Positions 1 to 8,266 of a stretch of 8,266 nt of DNA are shown here, piece by piece. The translations under genes were made by a program, and so were the position numbers. This DNA is from a virus (taxonomy: Duplodnaviria; Heunggongvirae; Uroviricota; Caudoviricetes), in the IMG/VR virus record IMGVR_UViG_2740892234_000014; one strand, given 5' to 3'. The notes beneath the pieces are model-generated. The model saw nothing but the letters and a program-made list of their open reading frames with translations, was not told where the DNA came from and ran no database searches. Position 1 is the stretch's first letter. Each line of letters begins with the position of its first letter.

Positions 1-1020
1 CTACTTGCTAACCACGAGCGGCAAATCCAGTGTTGGTGTGATTTTTGTTTTACGATCGTAAATCAACACCTGATTTTCTGTTTTATGCCCGCTGAAAATT
101 TGTTTGTCGCGACTGCTGCCTTCGTAATCTGAGATCCCCTTGGCTTTTATGTCGTGAAAATTGCACCCGAACGGAACGCCAACTTTTTGCTCGGCTGCGC
201 GTTTAGCCTGATTCCACCAGTTATTCAGCGTTTTAGCTATGACTTTCCCGCCTTTGGTTGTATTGATCACATATTCGCATGTACAGGAAGATACATTTCG
301 GGCTAACTGGATCGCTGTACGTAATCGCGGTGACCATTCCTTGATTTGTTTGGTGCCGGTTTTGTTTTGCTCAATGTAGATCCCTTTATCCATAATATCC
401 TGCCATTTCAACTCAAGCACATCACCGAGTCTTGCCGCACAGAGATAGGAAATCTCCATTGCAATGCGTAACTGTGGAATTGCTTCCGCATATATCGCCG
501 CATACTGTTCATCGGTGATGTAAACAGTGCGGGCTTTAAGAGAGAATTTTCTGACTCCTTTGCATGGGTTATTCTTCACATACCCACGCTCATATCCCCA
601 CCCGTATACTCGACTCAGGCTTGCCAGTTCATGATTTGCCTGGGTCTTGCTCTCAAGCCCTCGTTTATCCATGAAAATTCTTACCTGCTCAGTTTTGACA
701 TTATCAGCAAGCACTTTTCCGAATACCATCAGCAACGCCTTCTGATGTTGTCGATAATCTTTTTGGGTTCGGGGGGCCAGTTCTGTAAATGCAGGGGAGT
801 CCATAAACATGTGCCATAATTTAGCTACGGTCATTATGTTGTGGAGTTTTGCTTTTTCCAGTTCATAATTTTGCCAGACTTTAGCTACGCTGGTTTTCCG
901 CACTCTTCCTAGCCCTATAGTTCTTGTACTTCCTTCTGGTTTCCACACGTAACTGTAACCATTCGATCTAACCCGCGGTGGCAGTACATTATCTTTTTTA
1001 TTTTTTCTTGGTCTTCCCAT
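1..1020 (-). CDS. int: Tyrosine recombinase / phage integrase, lambda Int family (module A), 339 aa
   Basis: Complete ORF with ATG at 1018-1020 and TAG at 1-3. N-terminus MGRPRKNKKDNVLPP..NGYSY resembles the lambda Int arm-binding N-terminus (from memory). Box I Arg (AARLGD), KTG Lys, GHK His and the Tyr in LIYDRK are present; the second Arg of HxxR is Lys (HDIK). The upstream excisionase-like ORF overlaps it. Confidence 0.9.
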   Translation of the reverse strand: MGRPRKNKKDNVLPPRVRSNGYSYVWKPEGSTRTIGLGRVRKTSVAKVWQNYELEKAKLHNIMTVAKLWHMFMDSPAFTELAPRTQKDYRQHQKALLMVFGKVLADNVKTEQVRIFMDKRGLESKTQANHELASLSRVYGWGYERGYVKNNPCKGVRKFSLKARTVYITDEQYAAIYAEAIPQLRIAMEISYLCAARLGDVLELKWQDIMDKGIYIEQNKTGTKQIKEWSPRLRTAIQLARNVSSCTCEYVINTTKGGKVIAKTLNNWWNQAKRAAEQKVGVPFGCNFHDIKAKGISDYEGSSRDKQIFSGHKTENQVLIYDRKTKITPTLDLPLVVSK

Positions 1021-1240
1021 TATTCAGCGCCTCAAAATCGGGTTCAGCAGAAACCAGTTCAGATGTTTTTGGCATCGTTGTCAGTCCGTGTGGAATATCC
1101 CTGCGTAGAACTATTGGTTCGTTTTTAGGACCGATTACAAATGGGATGCCGTGCAGTCTTAACTGGTGTTGCTGTTTTGTGTATCGCTCGTATTTCGTGA
1201 TCTCTTTAATCTCTGCTGGAGATAGAGTTAATTCGTACAT
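998..1240 (-). CDS. Small excisionase-like / directionality-factor candidate (module A), 80 aa
   Basis: ATG at 1238-1240. The 3' end overlaps the int start by 23 nt, the classic xis-int arrangement. Small basic protein. Assigned by position and size, not by strong motif similarity. Confidence 0.5.
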   Translation of the reverse strand: MYELTLSPAEIKEITKYERYTKQQHQLRLHGIPFVIGPKNEPIVLRRDIPHGLTTMPKTSELVSAEPDFEALNNGKTKKK

Positions 1241-1298
1241 GTGGTCACGTGCCTTTACAGCATGACCGCCGCCACTGTAGCTGGTGGGCGGCGATATG

Positions 1299-1345
1299 GG
1301 TTGAACATTAAAAATCAGCCTGACTCGGGATCAGTTTTTGCCAGA
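1299..1345. repeat. 47-bp direct repeat, copy 1 (GGTTGAACATTAAAAATCAGCCTGACTCGGGATCAGTTTTTGCCAGA)
   Basis: Identical by eye to 3776-3822. Ends exactly at the first N10 gap. Confidence 0.9.
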
Positions 1346-1355: not shown

Positions 1356-1403
1356 TAAGGCGGGACACTTTCAGGATTTTGAATTTATTCAATTTTTTCC
1401 TTT

Positions 1404-1435
1404 CTCCAAAATCTCTCCAAAACTTTTCCCCAAAA
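1404..1435. promoter_or_regulatory. Three phased (C/T)CCAAAA A-tract units at 11-13 bp spacing, possible bend or arm-type binding region
   Basis: CTCCAAAA at 1404-1411 and 1415-1422, CCCCAAAA at 1428-1435, in an AT-rich non-coding stretch at the left end of module B. Confidence 0.25.
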
Positions 1436-1562
1436 CAGGACCACGCATTTTACAGCATTTTTATACATGGGTGAGCTTACTAGGACAGAAAAGTATTCCA
1501 GTTTGTTTACCCATATCGCTTTCCGAATGAGATTTTTGATGTGATTTCTTCGTGTTGAAAAA

Positions 1563-1575
1563 CCACATAATGTGG
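1563..1575. promoter_or_regulatory. 13-bp perfect palindrome CCACATAATGTGG (candidate operator) next to TTGAAA -35-like hexamer (1555-1560)
   Basis: Perfect inverted repeat read directly from the sequence, about 65 bp upstream of the small ORF start at 1642. No tool-based promoter prediction. Confidence 0.3.
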
Positions 1576-1641
1576 TATTAGAATTAGCTATCAAGATTCA
1601 CTTTGAATCCGTTTTGAATCCCATTGAACTCAGGAGTGACT

Positions 1642-1845
1642 ATGAAGCGTAAAAGTGTGGCTTTGTTACAAGCCATTGGCTCGGTTATAGCCCTGAGCCC
1701 GACGGTCGTTTCAGCAAATGGCATGCCAGCGAATCCAGTTTCCGCTTTGCGTCAGGATGCTGCGGCTATCAGAGGCGATTTCCAAAAAGCAATGGTATCC
1801 GTTAACGTTGAAAAGCTGAACAATGCCAGATCAAAAAGAAAGTGA
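1642..1845 (+). CDS. Hypothetical small protein (67 aa) with signal-peptide-like N-terminus (MKRKSVALLQAIGSVIALSPTVVSA|NG)
   Basis: ATG at 1642 preceded by AGGAG (1632-1636) at 5-nt spacing. The track ORF begins at an upstream TTG at 1624. TGA at 1843-1845. Overlaps the next ORF start by 23 nt. Confidence 0.4.
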   Translation: MKRKSVALLQAIGSVIALSPTVVSANGMPANPVSALRQDAAAIRGDFQKAMVSVNVEKLNNARSKRK

Positions 1846-2290
1846 GAACACCAAACTCACTTGTGAAGAACAAAAGGATAATGAACTGGTTTCTCGAGTA
1901 ATCGAAAATCCAGAGGTCTTAAACAGGGTTTTGGATAGTCCGCAGGTGCGGGCTATTGTTTGCCAGCATTTTCAGGGGCCTGTTCCGCCACCTTCAATGC
2001 TTAAAAAGTATGATCAACTGGTGCCTGGGCTTGCAAATCGACTTGTTGAGTTGACCGAAAAAGAGCAGGCTCATCGCCATAAAACAGTGGCTGATAGCAT
2101 TGATATTGCCAGAGATGGTCAAACAAAGGCTTTTTGGTTGGCAATATTGATCATCTTAGCTGCCACTGTCTTTGGCGTCATGGGGGAGACAGTTCTTGCC
2201 GGAACTCTCGTTTCAATAGATCTTGTTGCATTGGTTACGGCATTTATTGTTGGAAAACATTATTCTAAGCAGGAACCTGATCAAGATTAG
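1823..2290 (+). CDS. DUF2335-like predicted membrane protein (155 aa): soluble N-domain with PPP and HRH motifs plus two C-terminal TM helices
   Basis: ATG at 1823. Hydrophobic segments AFWLAILIILAATVFGVMG and LAGTLVSIDLVALVTAFIVG. The pattern ..PPPSMLKKY..EKEQAHRH.. matches my recollection of the DUF2335 family. Followed immediately by a terminator hairpin. Confidence 0.55.
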   Translation: MPDQKESENTKLTCEEQKDNELVSRVIENPEVLNRVLDSPQVRAIVCQHFQGPVPPPSMLKKYDQLVPGLANRLVELTEKEQAHRHKTVADSIDIARDGQTKAFWLAILIILAATVFGVMGETVLAGTLVSIDLVALVTAFIVGKHYSKQEPDQD

Positions 2291-2296
2291 TCTCCG

Positions 2297-2321
2297 AACC
2301 CCGGTTGATGCCGGGGTTTTT
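2297..2321 (+). terminator. Rho-independent terminator (AACCCCGG-TTGATG-CCGGGGTT + T-run)
   Basis: 8-bp perfect stem, 6-nt loop and T tract 7 nt after the stop of the 1823-2290 ORF. Confidence 0.6.
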
Positions 2322-2366
2322 ACACTAGCAAAGCAATATCAACATTTTTCAGCTGCATTTATTTCG

Positions 2367-3485
2367 TCAAACAACCAATTTAACCCATTCCTGACCACGA
2401 GTATCGTTATAACGATCGGTGGTTGCCTGGACTTTATGTCCCAGTAATGTTTTTGTATCAATACCCTGCGTGCGGTACAGTCGTTCTGACAGGGAGCGTT
2501 GTTCATGAAATGTTGGCGGAGTTTTTCCTGCTGGTGGAGTTATCCCAGCCAGATCCCGTGCTTTGGCAAAGTAGTCGCTCAGGTTGTCTTTACTCATCGG
2601 CTTTGGTTGTTTCTGGTGCCGACTATGGATTAGATATGGACTTAATATTCTGTCTCGGCACCCATCAATAACTTCTTTTAACGTTATCCCAATGGCATCA
2701 CAGCGTAGTGTAAGCGGTAACGCCAGACGCATTCCGGTTTTTCCCTGGGTGATATGCAAGTGTTCGTTCCACACATCTGAAAAACGCATGTGGCAAATGT
2801 CATCACGGCGCTGACCAGTAACAATCGCAAGAAGCATTGCGTTACGGATAAAGTGTTTTTCAGGCGTTGCGTTGTAAATTTTTTGCCAGTCTTCCAGGGT
2901 GAGCCTGGCTCTAGTTACTTTAGGGATCGGTTTACGGGTAGCCTCCGGAGGATTCCATCCAGGAGGAACTTCCCCTGCATGCTGTGCTTCTTTATAAATA
3001 TCAACCCATAATCCACGATTTACTCTCGCTGTGCTGACCATGTCTTTATCCAGCCACTCATCCAGTATTAATGCAAAGTCTCTTACTTCCAGTTCTTTCA
3101 ATGGGTGGTTTCCCAGACGGGAAACCAGGTATGCAGCCATTCGGGCTTTTTCTTTGTGAGTTGTAGCTGCAATATCTCCATTTTTCAGTCGCGTGTCCTG
3201 TATTTTCAGATATCGATCAACCCATGCCTTTAATCTGATACCCCGACGCTTTGTTGCTGACGGACTTTCATCAATTTTGCGCATGAAATATTCAGCCTCT
3301 GCTGCAGCTATTCGCTGATTGGCTGTGGAAGCGATTTTTTCTGCCTTACCTTTGTCTGTTCCGAGCCCGTGAAATTTTCCAGTCACAGGGTTTTTATACT
3401 GGTAGTAAACTCTGCCAGTTCTGCGATCAAATTTTTCGTAAAGTCCGGCTACGTCAGTGCTGTTTTTTCGTGGCCTCGGTGACAT
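2367..3485 (-). CDS. int: Tyrosine recombinase / phage integrase, lambda Int family (module B), 372 aa
   Basis: ATG at 3483-3485 with AAGGAG RBS upstream; TGA at 2367-2369. C-terminus TFHEQRSLSERLY...LLGHK...DRYNDTRGQEW closely parallels lambda Int TFHELRSLSARLY...LLGHK...QYRDDRGREW (recalled). Box I TGQRRDD and KTG present. Confidence 0.92.
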   Translation of the reverse strand: MSPRPRKNSTDVAGLYEKFDRRTGRVYYQYKNPVTGKFHGLGTDKGKAEKIASTANQRIAAAEAEYFMRKIDESPSATKRRGIRLKAWVDRYLKIQDTRLKNGDIAATTHKEKARMAAYLVSRLGNHPLKELEVRDFALILDEWLDKDMVSTARVNRGLWVDIYKEAQHAGEVPPGWNPPEATRKPIPKVTRARLTLEDWQKIYNATPEKHFIRNAMLLAIVTGQRRDDICHMRFSDVWNEHLHITQGKTGMRLALPLTLRCDAIGITLKEVIDGCRDRILSPYLIHSRHQKQPKPMSKDNLSDYFAKARDLAGITPPAGKTPPTFHEQRSLSERLYRTQGIDTKTLLGHKVQATTDRYNDTRGQEWVKLVV

Positions 3486-3723
3486 GAGTTAAAATCTCCT
3501 TCAGTGCATCATCATCGCCAGTATGAATTTCCGGCGCAATTCCTGTTTCACCAGGTCCAACAAATACTGCTCGGCGATCTATCAGCCAACGCCCACGAAT
3601 TTTTTGTGGTCTTGGAACGATGTATCCTAGTTTTCCGTATTTCACCAGGGTAGTGTTTGTTATTGGGAGACTGAACCGTTTTGGCTTCCACTCATCGAGC
3701 GTTATCAGGTACTGTTCGCTCAT
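3454..3723 (-). CDS. xis: Excisionase (lambda Xis-like), module B, about 89 aa
   Basis: MSEQYLITLDEWKPKRFSL... parallels the lambda Xis opening MYLTLQEWNARQRRPRSL (recalled). Overlaps the int start by 32 nt. The track ORF 3454-3732 begins at GTG; the ATG at 3721-3723 is the likelier start. Confidence 0.7.
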   Translation of the reverse strand: MSEQYLITLDEWKPKRFSLPITNTTLVKYGKLGYIVPRPQKIRGRWLIDRRAVFVGPGETGIAPEIHTGDDDALKEILTHVTEATKKQH

Positions 3724-3775
3724 GGCTATCACTCCGGAACGCGCCAGTTGCAGAATACCAACGACAACTGGCGAC

Positions 3776-3822
3776 GGTTGAACATTAAAAATCAGCCTGA
3801 CTCGGGATCAGTTTTTGCCAGA
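3776..3822. repeat. 47-bp direct repeat, copy 2 (contains the stop codon of the exonuclease gene)
   Basis: Identical to 1299-1345. Flanks diverge immediately 5' of the repeat (A: ..GCGATATGG, B: ..CTGGCGAC). Confidence 0.9.
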
Positions 3823-4477
3823 TAGCTGAAACGTATTTTGCCTGATAACGGGCGTCATCAAGTGCATTATGGCGCTCACCTTCGAATGGGATAGCAGTTC
3901 TGGCATCGAAGTCTATGGCTTTCCCCAGCTCAACGATTGTGCGTACATCGCGATCGTTGTAGTAACGCCACGGGCAGGGGATCCCCTGCCGTTCGTATGA
4001 ACGGCGCAAAATCGTGTTGTCGAAGTTGGCTCCATTTCCCCAGACCTGAACAAAAAATTCACCGGAGTTTTCGTCGATAAATTCCCGCAATTGTAACAGT
4101 GCATCATCTAACGGGATTTCATCGGTCATAATGGCAGATTGCGCTTCGCGTGATTGCTTAAGCCACCATTTAATGGTGTCCCGATCAATGACTCCGCCAG
4201 CAGTTTCCAGATCAATAGTCTTACTAAATTCCGGTCCCATATCTCCGGTTTGCGGATCGAAAAATATTGCACCTATTGAGATGATCGGGGCATCAGGATT
4301 TTTTCCCATGGTTTCAAGGTCGATCATTAGATGGTTACACGTCCTGCTGGTGGATGTGATTTCTTGATGACCGTTCACCTTAATTGAGAGATCTGCCGTC
4401 TCGCCAGTTTCATTATCGCTATCGTGATGCTGATTGCCGCCAGTGTTCTCCTTGTGTGGATGTTCAGCGCCTTCCAT
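3785..4477 (-). CDS. DEDDh (DnaQ-like) 3'-5' exonuclease domain, C-terminal part of the large prophage gene; this copy is cut off from upstream coding sequence by an in-frame TAG
   Basis: Motifs Exo I MIDLETMG, Exo [11 protein letters not shown], Exo [12 protein letters not shown], resembling Rv2179c-type 3'-5' exonucleases. TAA at 3785-3787. Track start is ATG at 4477; an alternative start is the ATG at 4325-4327 (MIDLETMG). In-frame TAG at 4532-4534 where the variant copies have CAG. Confidence 0.8.
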
Positions 4478-4582
4478 TTCCTCCGGATCATCTTCCTGAA
4501 CTTCAACCTGATACTCTTCATCGAATGTTTCCTAGTATGTTGCGTCGCCCATCACCGCGCCACAATCAGGGCAGTTGCCGCC

Positions 4583-4592
4583 NNNNNNNNNN
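4583..4592. other. Assembly gap (N10)
   Basis: Run of exactly 10 N. Confidence 0.95.
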
Positions 4593-4868
4593 CGCAGTGC
4601 CTTCCATTTCCTCCGGATCATTTTCCTGAACTTCAGGCTGATTCTCTCCATCGAATATTTCCTGGTATGTTGCGTCACCCATCACCGCACCACAATCAGG
4701 GCAGTTGCCGCCACCGCTCTGACCGCAGGCGGTGCAGATCTTTTCCGGTTCCTGTTGCACTACTGGTTCAGGTTGTTTCGTTTCTGGCTCGTTTTGTTGC
4801 GTATTTGGGCTGTTTTGTTCCGCTTTCTGGTCGTTCTGTTCCGTTTCTTGCTGGTTCTGGTTCACAGA
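4593..4868 (-). CDS. Fragment (allelic variant) of large gene: Q/E-rich linker + C4 zinc ribbon ([16 protein letters not shown])
   Basis: Open minus-strand frame across the contig. Near-identical to 4424-4582 and 4879-5157 with scattered SNPs. Confidence 0.55.
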
Positions 4869-4878
4869 NNNNNNNNNN
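4869..4878. other. Assembly gap (N10)
   Basis: Run of exactly 10 N. Confidence 0.95.
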
Positions 4879-5287
4879 TGCAGTACCTTCCATTTCCTCC
4901 GGATCATTTTCCTGAACTTCAGGCTGATTCTCTTCATCGAATATTTCCTGGTATGTTGCGTCGCCCATCACCGCGCCACAATCAGGGCAGTTGCCGCCGC
5001 CGGTCTGACCGCAGGCGGTGCAGACTTTTTCCACTTCCTGTTGCGCCACTGGTTCAGGCTGTTTCGTTTCTGGCTCGTTTTGTAACGCATTTGGGCTGTT
5101 TTGTTCCGCTTTTTGGTAGTTCCGTTCCGATTCATGCTGGTTCTGGTTTACAGAATCGCGGGTCTGGATCCCCTTAACCCATTTCGGATCATTCGGGTCG
5201 CTAATCCCTGCAACAAATTCTCCGCGAGAGGCAGCAAGCAACTTATCGGCGTCAGGCTGGCTGATATTGGCTGCCTGCATAATTTTG
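4879..5287 (-). CDS. Fragment of large gene: ..[37 protein letters not shown].. + Q/E-rich linker + C4 zinc ribbon ([16 protein letters not shown]); continues in frame into the exonuclease domain
   Basis: Open minus-strand frame across the whole contig. Its 3' end (..DPEEMEGTA) matches the MEGAEHPH.. start of the 3785-4477 ORF. Confidence 0.6.
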
Positions 5288-5297
5288 NNNNNNNNNN
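5288..5297. other. Assembly gap (N10)
   Basis: Run of exactly 10 N. Confidence 0.95.
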
Positions 5298-5609
5298 TTC
5301 AATCCCCTTCACCCATTTCGGATCATTCGGGTCGCTAATCCCTGCAACAAATTCACCACGTGATGCGGCGAGCAACTGATTGGCGTCAGGCTGGCTGATA
5401 TTGGCTGCCTGCATAATTTTCTTTACTTCGTCAGCGGTAACTTTTACCGGTTCTGGTTGTTCAGAATTTTGTGCGGTATTTGCATTTTGCGGTAAGCCTG
5501 TGTATGTGCCATTTTTTCGGGCAAAATATTCTTCTTTTGTGATTTCAGTAGCCCCGGCAGCCAGCGCCTTATCCAGACCAGAAAGTTTGTTTGCGCGACC
5601 GTATTTTTC
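5298..5609 (-). CDS. Fragment of large gene (..[61 protein letters not shown]..)
   Basis: Open minus-strand frame. Overlaps in content with contigs 4879-5287, 5620-5790 and 5801-5883 (variants). Confidence 0.5.
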
Positions 5610-5619
5610 NNNNNNNNNN
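5610..5619. other. Assembly gap (N10)
   Basis: Run of exactly 10 N. Confidence 0.95.
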
Positions 5620-5790
5620 AACTTTTACTGACCCTGGTTGTGCGGTCGTGTCAGATGCACCAGTATTTTGTTGTGAACCTGAGTATGTACCGTTTTTGCG
5701 GGCGAAATATTCTTCTTTCGTGATTTCAGTAGCCCCAGCAGACAGCGCCTTATCCAGACCAGAAAGTTTGTTTGCGCGACCGTATTTTTC
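5620..5790 (-). CDS. Fragment (allelic variant) of large gene ([42 protein letters not shown]..)
   Basis: Open frame, translated by hand. Ends at the same junction (..GTATTTTTC) as contig 5298-5609. Confidence 0.5.
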
Positions 5791-5800
5791 NNNNNNNNNN
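5791..5800. other. Assembly gap (N10)
   Basis: Run of exactly 10 N. Confidence 0.95.
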
Positions 5801-5883
5801 TCAACAAATTCACCACGTGATACTGCAAGCAGTTCATCGGCGTCAGGCTGGCTGATATTGGCTGCCTGCATAATTTTGTTTAC

Positions 5884-5893
5884 NNNNNNNNNN
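5884..5893. other. Assembly gap (N10)
   Basis: Run of exactly 10 N. Confidence 0.95.
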
Positions 5894-6224
5894 GGCAGCC
5901 AGTGCCTTATCCAGACCAGAAAGTTTGTTTGCGCGACCGTATTTTTCGCCATCCTTGTCGGTGAAGAGGAAGTAGAACGGCCCCTCACGCTCTACAGATG
6001 GTTCGACTTCCACTTTGCATTCGGTTTTTTCGTTGTCCGGAATTGCCGTTTCCACTGCATCAGTTTCTGGTACTGGCGACGAGAGAGTGTCAGTTGCGCT
6101 CTGATTTGTTCCTTCATCTTCAAACACGCCCTTTGTAGTCAGGTATTCAGTAATGTATTTGTTCAGTGCCACAGGGTCTTTGTGAATGTCGATCGGACGT
6201 TCACGGACAAGGCCAAAAATAGTC
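5894..6224 (-). CDS. Fragment of large gene (TIFGLVRERPIDIHKDPVALNKYITEYLTTKGVFEDE..acidic TDAVET linker..[32 protein letters not shown])
   Basis: Open minus-strand frame across the contig. The track M at 6172 is a GTG codon inside the frame. Confidence 0.55.
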
Positions 6225-6234
6225 NNNNNNNNNN
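6225..6234. other. Assembly gap (N10)
   Basis: Run of exactly 10 N. Confidence 0.95.
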
Positions 6235-6454
6235 AGCTTCCGGCGCGGTTTCATTTTTTGGGATATCAGATACCTCAGTTTCCACTGCATCAGTTTGTGT
6301 TTCTGATGACTGGAGAACATCAACAGTGCCCAGGTCTGTTTCTTCATTCTCAAACACGCCCTTTGTCGTCAGGTATTCGCAGATATATTTGTTCAGTGCT
6401 ACGGGATCTTTGTGAATGTCGATCGGACGTTCACGGACAAGGCCAAAAATAGTC
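6235..6454 (-). CDS. Fragment (length-variant allele) of large gene (TIFGLVRERPIDIHKDPVALNKYICEYLTTKGVFENEETDLGTVDVLQSSETQTDAVETEVSDIPKNETAPEA)
   Basis: Hand translation of the reverse complement. Shares about 100 nt with the start of contig 5894-6224, then differs by indel-type divergence in the acidic linker. Confidence 0.5.
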
Positions 6455-6464
6455 NNNNNNNNNN
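6455..6464. other. Assembly gap (N10)
   Basis: Run of exactly 10 N. Confidence 0.95.
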
Positions 6465-6583
6465 ATATTCGCGACGAATGACTGCAGTGACAGGGGGGAT
6501 TTTTTCTGCTGAGTTTTCAGTGTGCTGTCGGTGGACTCTGGCGCGGGCGAGATCAACAACAGACGTGTATTTTCCGGTTTCCT

Positions 6584-6593
6584 NNNNNNNNNN
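6584..6593. other. Assembly gap (N10)
   Basis: Run of exactly 10 N. Confidence 0.95.
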
Positions 6594-6653
6594 ACTGTTG
6601 ATTGGCTCTGGCGCGGGCGAGATCAACAACAGACGTGTATTTTCCGGTTTCCT

Positions 6654-6663
6654 NNNNNNNNNN
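6654..6663. other. Assembly gap (N10)
   Basis: Run of exactly 10 N. Confidence 0.95.
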
Positions 6664-7178
6664 GTATTCGCGATGAATGGCAGCAATGACCGGGCTGATT
6701 TTTCCTGTTGAATTTTCAGTGTGCTGTTGATTGGTTCTGGCGCGGGCGAGATCAACAACAGACGTGTATTTTCCGGTTTCCTTGCGTTCACCTTCGCGAC
6801 GTTTTTTCCAGATGCGCATTTCTGCCTGAATTTCGGGCCATTTGGCACCAGGCTTACATTTATGCTTAACCCACCCGATGGCATGCAGCTTAAGCTCCGG
6901 ATACATGGCGTTAACTTCTGGCATTTTCATCAACGCTTCAACGATATGTCCGTCGAATGTTGCCATGTCTTCCTGCAACAATTCCTGTGCGCTAATAACC
7001 ATATCAACGGTGATGTTTTCACATGTGTCGAACTTAACCATGACAGCGTTCTGTACTTCAGGGGCCAGCTTGTCAAAAGCGACGTTCATCGGATCTGATT
7101 CAGTCTCAACCGGGACAAAGGAAGCAGCCCCCTCATCCCAGCGGTTTTCCTGCATATATTCAGCATCCCAGGAATCGA
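6664..7178 (-). CDS. Fragment of large gene (..DSWDAEYMQENRWDEGAASFVPVETESDPMNVAFDKLAPEVQNAVMVKFD...KLHAIGWVKHKCKPGAKWPEIQAEMRIWKKRREGERKETGKYTSVVDLARARTNQQ..)
   Basis: Open minus-strand frame across the contig. Its upper end (DSWDAEY) abuts the ..PALDS end of the N-terminal fragment at 7576-7797. No family recognised. Confidence 0.55.
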
Positions 7179-7188
7179 NNNNNNNNNN
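7179..7188. other. Assembly gap (N10)
   Basis: Run of exactly 10 N. Confidence 0.95.
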
Positions 7189-7279
7189 TGACGTTCATCG
7201 GATAGGATTCAGTCTCAACCGGGACAAAAGAAGCAGACTCCTCATCCCAGCGGTTTTCCTGCATATATTCAGCATCCCA

Positions 7280-7289
7280 NNNNNNNNNN
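7280..7289. other. Assembly gap (N10)
   Basis: Run of exactly 10 N. Confidence 0.95.
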
Positions 7290-7382
7290 AGCACCAGGAA
7301 TACATTTATGCTTAACCCACCCAATGGCGTGCAACTTAAGCTCCGGATACATGGCGTTAACTTCTGGCATTTTCATCAACGC

Positions 7383-7392
7383 NNNNNNNNNN
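7383..7392. other. Assembly gap (N10)
   Basis: Run of exactly 10 N. Confidence 0.95.
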
Positions 7393-7565
7393 GGGCAGGG
7401 CGGGGTATACCGGGTTTATCCTCGCAAACAAGAAATTTATAAGCGCAGTCCTGAGCAGCCGGATAATGTTCCAGGAATTGCCAGTGAAATTTTGCTCGAG
7501 CACGGCGTTCGTCGCCAGCTTCAATGGCAGTGGCTACAGCGACTGCACCTTCTTCCTTTATTGCC

Positions 7566-7575
7566 NNNNNNNNNN
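7566..7575. other. Assembly gap (N10)
   Basis: Run of exactly 10 N. Confidence 0.95.
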
Positions 7576-7797
7576 TGAATCGAGGGCAGGGCGGGGTATG
7601 CCAGGTTTATCCTCGCAGACAATAAATTTATAAGCGCAGTCCTGAGCAGCCGGATAATGTTCCAGGAATTGCCAGTGAAATTTTGCGCGGGCGCGACATT
7701 CATCACCGGCTTCAATGGCAGTGGCTACAGCGACTGCACCTTCTTCCTTTATTGCCTGTTCGTCCGGAATGGCGGCGCAAATAAAGACTTTACTCAT
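7576..7797 (-). CDS. N-terminal fragment of large prophage gene (MSKVFICAAIPDEQAIKEEGAVAVATAIEAGDECRARAKFHWQFLEHYPAAQDCAYKFIVCEDKPGIPRPALDS..), positionally equivalent to ydfE of the Qin dicB operon
   Basis: ATG at 7795-7797 with GAGG about 9 nt upstream. Immediately downstream (in transcription order) of the ydfD-like gene. Contig 7393-7565 is a SNP variant of the same segment. The ydfE assignment is from recalled K-12 gene order, not sequence identity. Confidence 0.55.
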
Positions 7798-7889
7798 TTT
7801 GTTTTACCTCATTACAGATTTAAGGGTGAACAAATCCCTGCCATTGCTGGCATATAAGAATGAAATCGGATGTTTATTACGGAACTGTT

Positions 7890-8081
7890 TTAAAGACCTG
7901 CCGGGATTTCGTTATTATCCTGGTGAATAACTTTATCGACCGGGTAACAGTTACCGGGAATTTTCTGTTCGGTTGCTGCAGTCACACACTCCTGCATTGT
8001 CCTGTGAACACTGACTGCAATATCAACTGGCTCTCCGGAAACAAGAAAAACTGTCAGAACAAGTGCAAATGCTGTATTCAT
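7890..8081 (-). CDS. ydfD: YdfD-like small membrane/lysis protein (63 aa; MNTAFALVLTVFLVSGEP...)
   Basis: ATG at 8079-8081 overlaps the dicB stop (ATGA overlap, translational coupling); TAA at 7890-7892. N-terminal hydrophobic helix. Length and sequence match my recollection of Qin-prophage YdfD. The track ORF extends to an upstream ATG at 8135, which is less likely. Confidence 0.7.
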   Translation of the reverse strand: MNTAFALVLTVFLVSGEPVDIAVSVHRTMQECVTAATEQKIPGNCYPVDKVIHQDNNEIPAGL

Positions 8082-8266
8082 TGCCAGCATCCTTTTTGTA
8101 TCGGACGTAAACGGGCCAGCATTGAAAGAATGCATATTTTATTTAATAGCTCCCGTTCGTGTTTTCTCTTGTTAATGGCATCTTCAGTAAATACAGGGTT
8201 ACTGATAGTGACACCAATTTCAAAACAACCTTCAGACGTATTAACGTTTGGTAATAACGTTTCCAT
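8078..8266 (-). CDS. dicB: DicB-like cell-division inhibitor (62 aa)
   Basis: METLLPNVNTSEGCFEIGVTISNPVFTEDAINKRK.ERELLNKICI.SMLARLR matches the recalled Qin DicB sequence over nearly its whole length. ATG at 8264-8266, TGA at 8078-8080. Confidence 0.8.
   Translation of the reverse strand: METLLPNVNTSEGCFEIGVTISNPVFTEDAINKRKHERELLNKICILSMLARLRPIQKGCWQ

Follow-up and report, generated by a model that had tools for sequence, protein, structure and literature searches.

STEC short reads are hard to assemble, as is noted in PMC9278759. In short-read de Bruijn assemblies of multi-prophage STEC and EPEC, near-identical lambdoid prophages break or tangle the assembly, contigs end at repeat borders, and variant branches are left as short contigs with k-1 overlaps; the locus described here behaves likewise. 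The gene affected is a lambdoid-prophage exonuclease, which in complete genomes is an intact minus-strand gene of 2,472 nt (823 aa) in a locus of approximately 3.0 kb of DNA. Its intact form is the 823-aa exonuclease of phrog_2082 and the YdfE family, with a PF16473 exoribonuclease domain, and the gene order int-xis-exo-ydfD-dicB is alike in both.

RecE, the exodeoxyribonuclease VIII of the Rac prophage, occupies a like position in the early-left operon of lambdoid prophages. RecE carries a C-terminal 5′-3′ exonuclease.

The window analysed here is a stretch of 8,266 nt in which approximately 3.4 kb is drawn as a string of pieces of this exonuclease gene. This string is almost certainly an artefact of short-read draft assembly and not a biological structure.

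Layout and redundancy of the window

The whole window contains 15 runs of exactly 10 N, which divide it into 16 pieces (c1 to c16), and a spacer of this fixed length is present at every junction between pieces. Fourteen of the runs fall within 4424–7797, where the initial annotation had correctly counted 15 N-separated pieces. Pairwise blastn comparisons revealed that adjoining pieces are ungapped 83–98% copies of the same gene stretches, and all gene pieces were placed, without gaps, on one 2,472-nt gene at a depth of 1 to 3. On a complete allele, the 3,234 bases of 4424–7797 other than N fall on only 1,642 distinct gene positions. The depth in this region likewise ranges from 1 to 3 and averages about 2, and stretches at depth 1 coincide with identical sequence. 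A depth of up to 3 means that at least three copies have been collapsed.

The four-cysteine stretch of the gene is covered by three variants, namely the end of c2, c3 (4593–4868, minus strand, gene nt 1519–1794) and c4 (4879–5287, minus strand, gene nt 1386–1794). Positions 4465–4582 match 4595–4712 at 91.5% and positions 4470–4582 match 4886–4998 at 94.7%, both ungapped, which bears out the initial annotation's threefold zinc-ribbon segment. The ungapped match between c3 and c4 (92.0% over 275 nt) extends past the limits of 4760 and 5050 given there.

The remaining gene pieces are also on the minus strand. Pieces c5 (5298–5609, gene nt 1198–1509) and c6 (5620–5790, gene nt 1198–1368) match ungapped at 90.5% between 5484–5609 and 5665–5790, and are followed by c7 (5801–5883, gene nt 1381–1463). 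Pieces c8 (5894–6224, gene nt 921–1251) and c9 (6235–6454, gene nt 921–1140) precede the spacer at 6455–6464, which hides a real omission, gene nt 730–920 being absent. Beyond it lie c10 (6465–6583, gene nt 611–729), c11 (6594–6653, gene nt 611–670) and c12 (6664–7178, gene nt 215–729). Parts of c12 recur in c13 (7189–7279, gene nt 223–313) and c14 (7290–7382, gene nt 457–549), with 7081–7170 matching 7190–7279 at 94.4% and 6845–6936 matching 7291–7382 at 94.6%, ungapped in each case. Similarly, c15 (7393–7565, gene nt 42–214) matches 7584–7756 in the head of c16 (7576–7797, gene nt 1–222; ATG at 7795–7797) at 93.1%, ungapped. The proposal that consecutive contigs are near-identical and not contiguous was thus reproduced by pairwise alignment in every example given for it. 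The rest of c16 (7798–8266) is single-copy in the window and carries the ydfD/DUF1482 gene (7890–8081) and dicB (8078–8266), both on the minus strand.

Piece ends as probable graph nodes

Nine of the 15 right ends have exactly 48 nt in common with another piece, and at three further right ends the common tail is 47, 43 or 40 nt and not 48. At the left ends, any prefix common to two pieces is at most 16 nt long, and in most pairs the left end begins at a variant base (mismatch offset 0). Pieces c5 and c6 both end ..GTATTTTTC within an identical 48-nt tail, at the shared junctions (5609 and 5790) that the initial annotation had pointed out; c8 and c9 both end ..AAAAATAGTC, with a common 48-nt tail that borders a conserved block, and c10 and c11 both end ..GGTTTCCT. 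The end of c2 lies exactly 48 nt past a TAG variant at 4532–4534.

Fixed 48-nt tails and left ends at a variant base are the signature of de Bruijn nodes with k=49, and the earlier suggestion of assembly-graph bubbles therefore holds. Complete alleles thread through alternating pieces. In these alleles, the 48-mer that precedes c15 and c16 equals the final 48 nt of c12 and c13. Piece c12 in truth leads to c15, and c13 to c16; the drawn order is not adjacency. Piece c12 is unbroken at some branches, and together with the three tails of 47, 43 and 40 nt this indicates that the graph was post-processed in some way. As a rule for piece order, reference start, reference end and length were each tried, and none fits fully. 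An assembler name based on the one-sided k-1 convention was dropped as unsupported.

It is proposed that identical stretches of the prophage copies would collapse into one graph node, and that differing stretches would split the graph into parallel branches. All these nodes, from a de Bruijn graph of short reads with k=49, would then have been written in sequence with 10-N spacers, a later ordering step probably having set all nodes that map to the exonuclease gene side by side. The outcome is a record that is neither contiguous nor complete, with overlapping gene coordinates, two prophage arms joined and 191 nt absent.

The locus in complete genomes and other drafts

In the 15 best-matching complete genomes, 4,567 nt of the window fit into 2,985–3,027 nt, and the tandem layout is absent from these 15. 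Complete E. coli genomes with at least 80% of the 4,567 nt in one place number 3,247, with 1 to 9 places per genome (median 2). Every annotated complete locus that was fetched has a single 2,472-nt CDS, then ydfD and dicB. Two earlier conclusions hold: that the true locus is much shorter than drawn, and that ORF calls across the N runs are artefactual.

In a sister draft free of N (L009), the same yccA site carries one gene copy, split by the TAG. Other drafts break their contigs inside the exonuclease gene (L013, L014 and 12 similar places).

Eight complete loci were compared with the window in detail. All 25-mers of the window are found in them except those around two SNPs, and no single locus among the eight carries every piece at 100%. 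Pieces c4, c8, c12 and c6 reach only 98.8–99.4% against these complete alleles, so that this strain's exact alleles lie outside the eight-locus sample.

The exonuclease gene

Three complete alleles (L001, L003 and L006) match phrog_2082 from end to end (1–823/823), and in all three PF16473 (Rv2179c-like) is found at aa 641–813 with E-values of 1e-65 to 1e-68. In the window this domain lies in c2, at 3785–4477. Precomputed matches assign the N-terminal part to PF27430/PF27432 (YdfE_N and YdfE_C). The gene product is thus predicted from its sequence to be an 823-aa YdfE-type protein ending in an Rv2179c-like 3′-5′ exonuclease domain. The TAG at 4532–4534 in c2 is in frame and corresponds to codon 575 in one branch.

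The gene copies are mutually 92–99% similar. The most divergent stretch is gene nt 921–1140 (c8 versus c9), with 52 mismatches in 220 nt. The 191 nt missing at the gap at 6455–6464 (gene nt 730–920; L001 6638–6828) are the gene's most conserved part, with three variable columns among the eight complete alleles; this block was probably the graph node common to the copies and either went to another place or was discarded. Alternation among the paralogues is sharp, the stretch of 76% identity adjoining the 191-nt block with its three variable sites. This omission, the fixed length of the 48-nt tails and a 47-nt identity between c1 and c2 (below) had all gone unremarked in the initial annotation.

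Prophage copies behind the pieces

The first piece, c1 (1–1345, minus strand), is the left arm of a yccA-site lambdoid prophage and is 100% identical to yccA-site prophages. It contains an integrase gene (1–1020, 339 aa) and a DUF4224 excisionase-like gene (998–1240), both on the minus strand. Piece c2 (1356–4582, minus strand) is the left arm of a potC-site prophage, with 99.7% identity to O121 RM8352. It contains a small ORF (1642–1845) and a DUF2335 gene (1823–2290), both on the plus strand, an integrase gene (2367–3485) and an excisionase gene annotated as 270 nt (approximately 3454–3723; the mechanical ORF extends to 3732). The exonuclease gene is represented in c2 by its 3′-terminal 798 nt (3785–4582, minus strand), which include the Rv2179c-like domain.

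Relative to L004, c2 begins 23 nt past the boundary of the potC CDS, and the last 47 nt of c1 (1299–1345) are identical to 3776–3822 in c2. In the complete genome NZ_CP148357.1, the yccA and potC prophage sites are 1.3 Mb apart. The spacer at 1346–1355, which leads from the yccA-site arm to the chromosome-proximal end of the potC-site prophage, is a false join of the same kind as the others, here between the integrase arms of two prophages. The redundancy reported for 4424–7797 is real, but the start given for the artefact was too late, as it begins at 1346.

Among the gene pieces, c3, c7, c9, c11, c13 and c14 match the potC-site type at 100% (c3, c7, c11, c13 and c14 being 100% identical to the L001 allele), and c5, c10 and c15 match the ompW-site type at 100%. 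The yccA-site type is matched at 100% by c1. Piece c6 is 99.4% identical to L001, and c4 is 98.8% identical to yccA-site alleles. From these matches, the source E. coli appears to carry at least three lambdoid prophages (yccA-, potC- and ompW-site types), each with a copy of the exonuclease gene. The initial annotation was right to call for several paralogous copies, for which the 100% matches to three prophage copies speak; its term 'allelic' does not stand, as the copies are probably paralogues in different prophages of one genome.

Source record and alternative explanations

The window is the end of the draft record CCQE01000059.1 (GCA_000752595.1), on the reverse strand; the record ends 89 nt beyond the window's c16 end. 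Scans of collections of genome, viral and metagenome contigs for the N-junction pattern and for a private 49-mer gave no match, which places the source outside these collections; the record was identified by an exact match to the 230-aa product that the private TAG creates. A literature search for GCA_000752595.1 found no paper. In the source record, c1 continues without N into yccA..helD. This 6.2-kb chromosomal backbone has no N run; within the 14.5-kb source locus, only the prophage part contains N runs.

The backbone bears on the possibility that the variants come from a mixed sample, with more than one E. coli strain present or the culture contaminated. Graph bubbles look alike whatever the source of the variants, but diverged strains would be expected to give bubbles in the 6.2 kb after c1 too, and a strain mixture was rejected because this backbone is N-free. 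Furthermore, related complete genomes hold 3 to 8 copies of the exonuclease gene, and in 2013C-3264 and in Z1323HEC0393, both complete, several of the variants seen here are spread over different prophages of the one genome. Pieces c1 and c2 are the arms of prophages that occupy separate chromosomal sites. A mixed sample is thus very unlikely. Several prophages in one genome suffice, and of the two sources named in the initial annotation, a multi-prophage genome is retained and a mixed population is not needed.

A functional interpretation would be a real local array of partial copies for recombinational variation of the exonuclease or, in a weaker version, gene conversion between co-resident prophages that maintains alternating conserved and hypervariable blocks, with functional consequences; we regard this as very unlikely. 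A tandem array of silent cassettes or decayed segmental duplications, with each N10 a small unsequenced gap, can be set aside with near certainty on k-mer geometry and complete genomes: the drawn locus resembles cassettes, having partial, 83–98% similar copies in one orientation beside a full 5′ end, but every junction is an N10, and the piece boundaries fall precisely on variant bases and precisely 48 nt beyond the last of them, which is how k-mer graphs behave and not a biological trait. The sequences of pieces also recur without a mismatch in full-length genes of other prophages, and the locus is compact in the 15 best-matching complete genomes and a single gene copy in the N-free sister draft.

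Significance for data use

With the string read as an assembly artefact, its significance is one of data hygiene only. The pseudo-tandem layout of the public record has already given fragmentary gene calls: a public gene-call collection holds ORFs of 79, 200, 109 and 123 aa on CCQE01000059.1 (a further call of 230 aa is due to the TAG and not to the layout). Spurious protein clusters can grow from such fragments, as can mistaken claims of repeats or of arrays of pseudogenes. Downstream scans should mask the window or substitute a single 2,472-nt gene model, and the same treatment is advised for N10-dense prophage stretches in similar drafts. For biology, the locus only repeats what is known, namely that several near-identical lambdoid prophages are present in STEC/EPEC-like E. 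coli.

Comparison with known systems

Unlike in usual STEC/EPEC drafts, where variant branches are discarded or kept separate, the branches here were strung together with N10 spacers in a single deposited record, and contigs as short as 60 nt were retained. The record thus displays a pseudo-tandem array as well as a chimera of two prophage arms. Compared with the intact phrog_2082 gene, the version in the window is redundant, lacks 191 nt and has the TAG at codon 575 in one branch. RecE (NF007259) has partial similarity to the window's exonuclease over aa 246–623, and the RecE name is used in some records; the score against the RecE equivalog model is 285 bits versus a cutoff of 1,269, so that the protein is not an equivalog. 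Unlike in RecE, the catalytic domain in the window's exonuclease family is of the Rv2179c-like/RNase_T type (PF16473, PF00929).

Redundant pieces of a single gene

Fifteen runs of exactly ten N cut the window into 16 pieces (c1–c16, numbered from left to right), and 14 of these runs fall within 4424–7797, where the initial annotation had correctly counted 15 pieces. An all-against-all blastn comparison of the pieces reproduced each of the matches quoted there, all ungapped. The end of c2, c3 and c4 show 91.5–94.7% mutual identity (c3 and c4, 92% across 275 nt), c4, c5 and c7 88–92%, c5 and c6 90.5%, c8 and c9 83%, c10, c11 and c12 87–98%, and c15 and c16 93%; c13 and c14 each match parts of c12 at ~94.5%. 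The common piece ends are genuine: c5 and c6 both terminate in ..GTATTTTTC, c8 and c9 in ..AAAAATAGTC, and c10 and c11 in ..GGTTTCCT.

Of 5,426 complete E. coli genomes searched by megablast with window 3700–8266 (4,567 bases), 4,801 contain the sequence, at 1 to 9 places per genome (median 2), and 3,247 have at least 80% of the query at a single place. In the 15 best-matching of these finished records the query collapses to only 2,985–3,027 bases, and in the annotated loci examined the gene order is always integrase, excisionase, one 2,472-nt (823-aa) CDS annotated as an exonuclease or 3′-5′ exoribonuclease domain protein, ydfD/DUF1482 and dicB. The locus is thus much shorter than drawn, as proposed.

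On the allele of L001, one of eight complete E. coli prophage loci compared (L001–L008), the pieces were placed, in gene nt from the ATG, as follows: c16 at 1–222, c15 at 42–214, c12 at 215–729, c13 at 223–313, c14 at 457–549, c10 at 611–729, c11 at 611–670, none at 730–920, c8 at 921–1251, c9 at 921–1140, c5 at 1198–1509, c6 at 1198–1368, c7 at 1381–1463, c4 at 1386–1794, c3 at 1519–1794 and c2 at 1675–2472. Tiling depth ranges from 0 to 3, and the 3,234 non-N bases of 4424–7797 cover only 1,642 distinct gene positions. ORFs across N runs, taken to be artefacts, show up in the mechanical ORF list as XXXX-containing products.

Assembly-graph signature and false joins

Nine of the 15 right-hand ends (c2, c5, c6, c8, c9, c10, c11, c14 and c15) finish in exactly 48 nt that another piece also ends with, and for three further ends the common tail is 47, 43 or 40 nt long. 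Among left ends no shared prefix exceeds 16 nt, and in most piece pairs the left end lies exactly at a mismatch. Piece c2 terminates exactly 48 nt past its private SNP at 4534. The ends have the look of k=49 de Bruijn graph nodes whose leading k-1 bases were left off. In complete alleles, c15 is preceded by the 48-mer that closes c12, and c16 by the 48-mer that closes c13; the true links are therefore c12 to c15 and c13 to c16, which cross the drawn order.

Positions 3776–3822 of c2 equal the last 47 nt of c1 (blastn), and the gap at 1346–1355 is a false join of the same kind as the other N10 gaps. In the source record c1, a yccA-site arm, continues N-free into yccA..helD. Piece c2 starts 23 nt past the potC CDS boundary, judged from L004, and is therefore the arm of a potC-site prophage. 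Since c1 and c2 derive from two prophage arms, the scaffold is chimeric as well as redundant.

The 191 nt of gene nt 730–920 are absent at 6455–6464. This is the gene's most conserved part (3 variable columns among the eight complete alleles), and its borders are the exact break points of both flanking piece sets. We infer a shared graph node that was put at another prophage or dropped.

The window lies in reverse complement within record CCQE01000059.1 (114,569 nt; GCA_000752595.1), ending 89 nt short of the record's end. Across the 14.5 kb of the record read, all 15 N10 runs lie within the window. Public gene calls on this record are fragments of 79, 200, 109, 123 and 230 aa.

Prophage origin of the pieces

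In a comparison with the eight complete loci, c3, c7, c9, c11, c13 and c14 match the potC-site allele L001 at 100% identity; so do c5, c10 and c15 the ompW-site allele L006, and c1 the integrase arm of the yccA-site prophages L003, L005 and L007. The best matches of c4 and c12 are exonuclease alleles of yccA-site prophages (98.8%); c8 matches yccA-site alleles at 99.4%, and L002, L006 and L008 equally well. All window 25-mers occur in at least one complete locus, except around two SNPs, and the path of complete alleles can be traced through alternating pieces. Single complete genomes hold several variants in separate prophages, at 0.30 and 1.61 Mb in Z1323HEC0393 and at the ompW and yccA sites in 2013C-3264. 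Because the pieces match different prophage alleles, and variants sit apart within single genomes, at least three gene copies would be required, in keeping with the paralogous copies originally proposed; related STEC and EPEC genomes carry 3 to 8.

The cause had been left as a multi-prophage genome or a mixed population. The former accounts for the variants in full, whereas a mixture of strains is very improbable: diverged strains would be expected to give backbone bubbles too, yet the 6.2 kb of backbone adjoining c1 holds zero N runs.

Between c8 and c9 there are 52 mismatches in 220 nt (gene nt 921–1140), in an acidic, linker-like protein segment that directly adjoins the conserved 191-nt block. 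Recombination between co-resident lambdoid prophages would give rise to such a sharp mosaic of paralogous copies.

The exonuclease gene, its TAG variant and neighbouring cargo

Complete alleles align with phrog_2082 (exonuclease) over the full length and carry PF16473 (Rv2179c-like 3′-5′ exoribonuclease domain) at aa 641–813, with precomputed YdfE_N and YdfE_C hits in the N-terminal part. The RecE equivalog was rejected (score 285 bits; cutoff 1,269). The four-cysteine motif initially termed a zinc ribbon is present in the translation. The gene holds nothing new.

Piece c2 has an in-frame TAG at 4532–4534 (minus strand, codon 575 of 823); c3 and c4 have CAG. The TAG leaves a 574-aa part of the gene and, from a restart, a 230-aa product (3785–4477). 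None of the complete E. coli genomes has the variant (best identity 99.3%). Gene calls on 20 NCBI draft contigs include an identical 230-aa product, and for this reason the TAG appears to be a true nonsense mutation specific to a lineage rather than a sequencing error. In the draft-assembly loci L009, L010 and L012–L014 the product belongs to yccA-site prophages, but in L011, which is the source record, it lies downstream of the potC-type integrase. Besides the TAG site, only base 5737 (c6) lies in 25-mers that none of the eight complete loci contains; either a private SNP or an error could account for this.

Two plus-strand genes occupy the stretch from the prophage end to the potC-type integrase: a small ORF (67 aa; 1642–1845), whose translation appears to open with a signal peptide, and a gene for a DUF2335 membrane protein (1823–2290). 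By eye, a terminator-like stem-loop and T run follow at ~2297–2325. O121, O26 and other genomes conserve this cargo pair in the same position.

Consequences for public records

The initial observation is confirmed, and its interpretation, with some refinement, is supported: the feature arose in assembly and scaffolding and is an artefact rather than biology. In practice this is a warning that CCQE01000059.1 and its ORFs are unreliable in this region.

Besides full-length phrog_2082, the protein of L003:7308-9779 is matched by PHROGs families that each span just a fragment of it: phrog_31653 (81 aa), phrog_8783 (114 aa), phrog_5943 (257 aa) and phrog_14078 (264 aa). Truncated or fragmentary gene calls, as seen on CCQE01000059.1, may lie behind some of these families. 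The contigs of L013 (GCA_014571295.1) and L014 (GCA_015511445.1) likewise stop inside the exonuclease gene, ~700 nt from the stop codon, and 12 further draft places are similar; the same repeat breaks many short-read assemblies.
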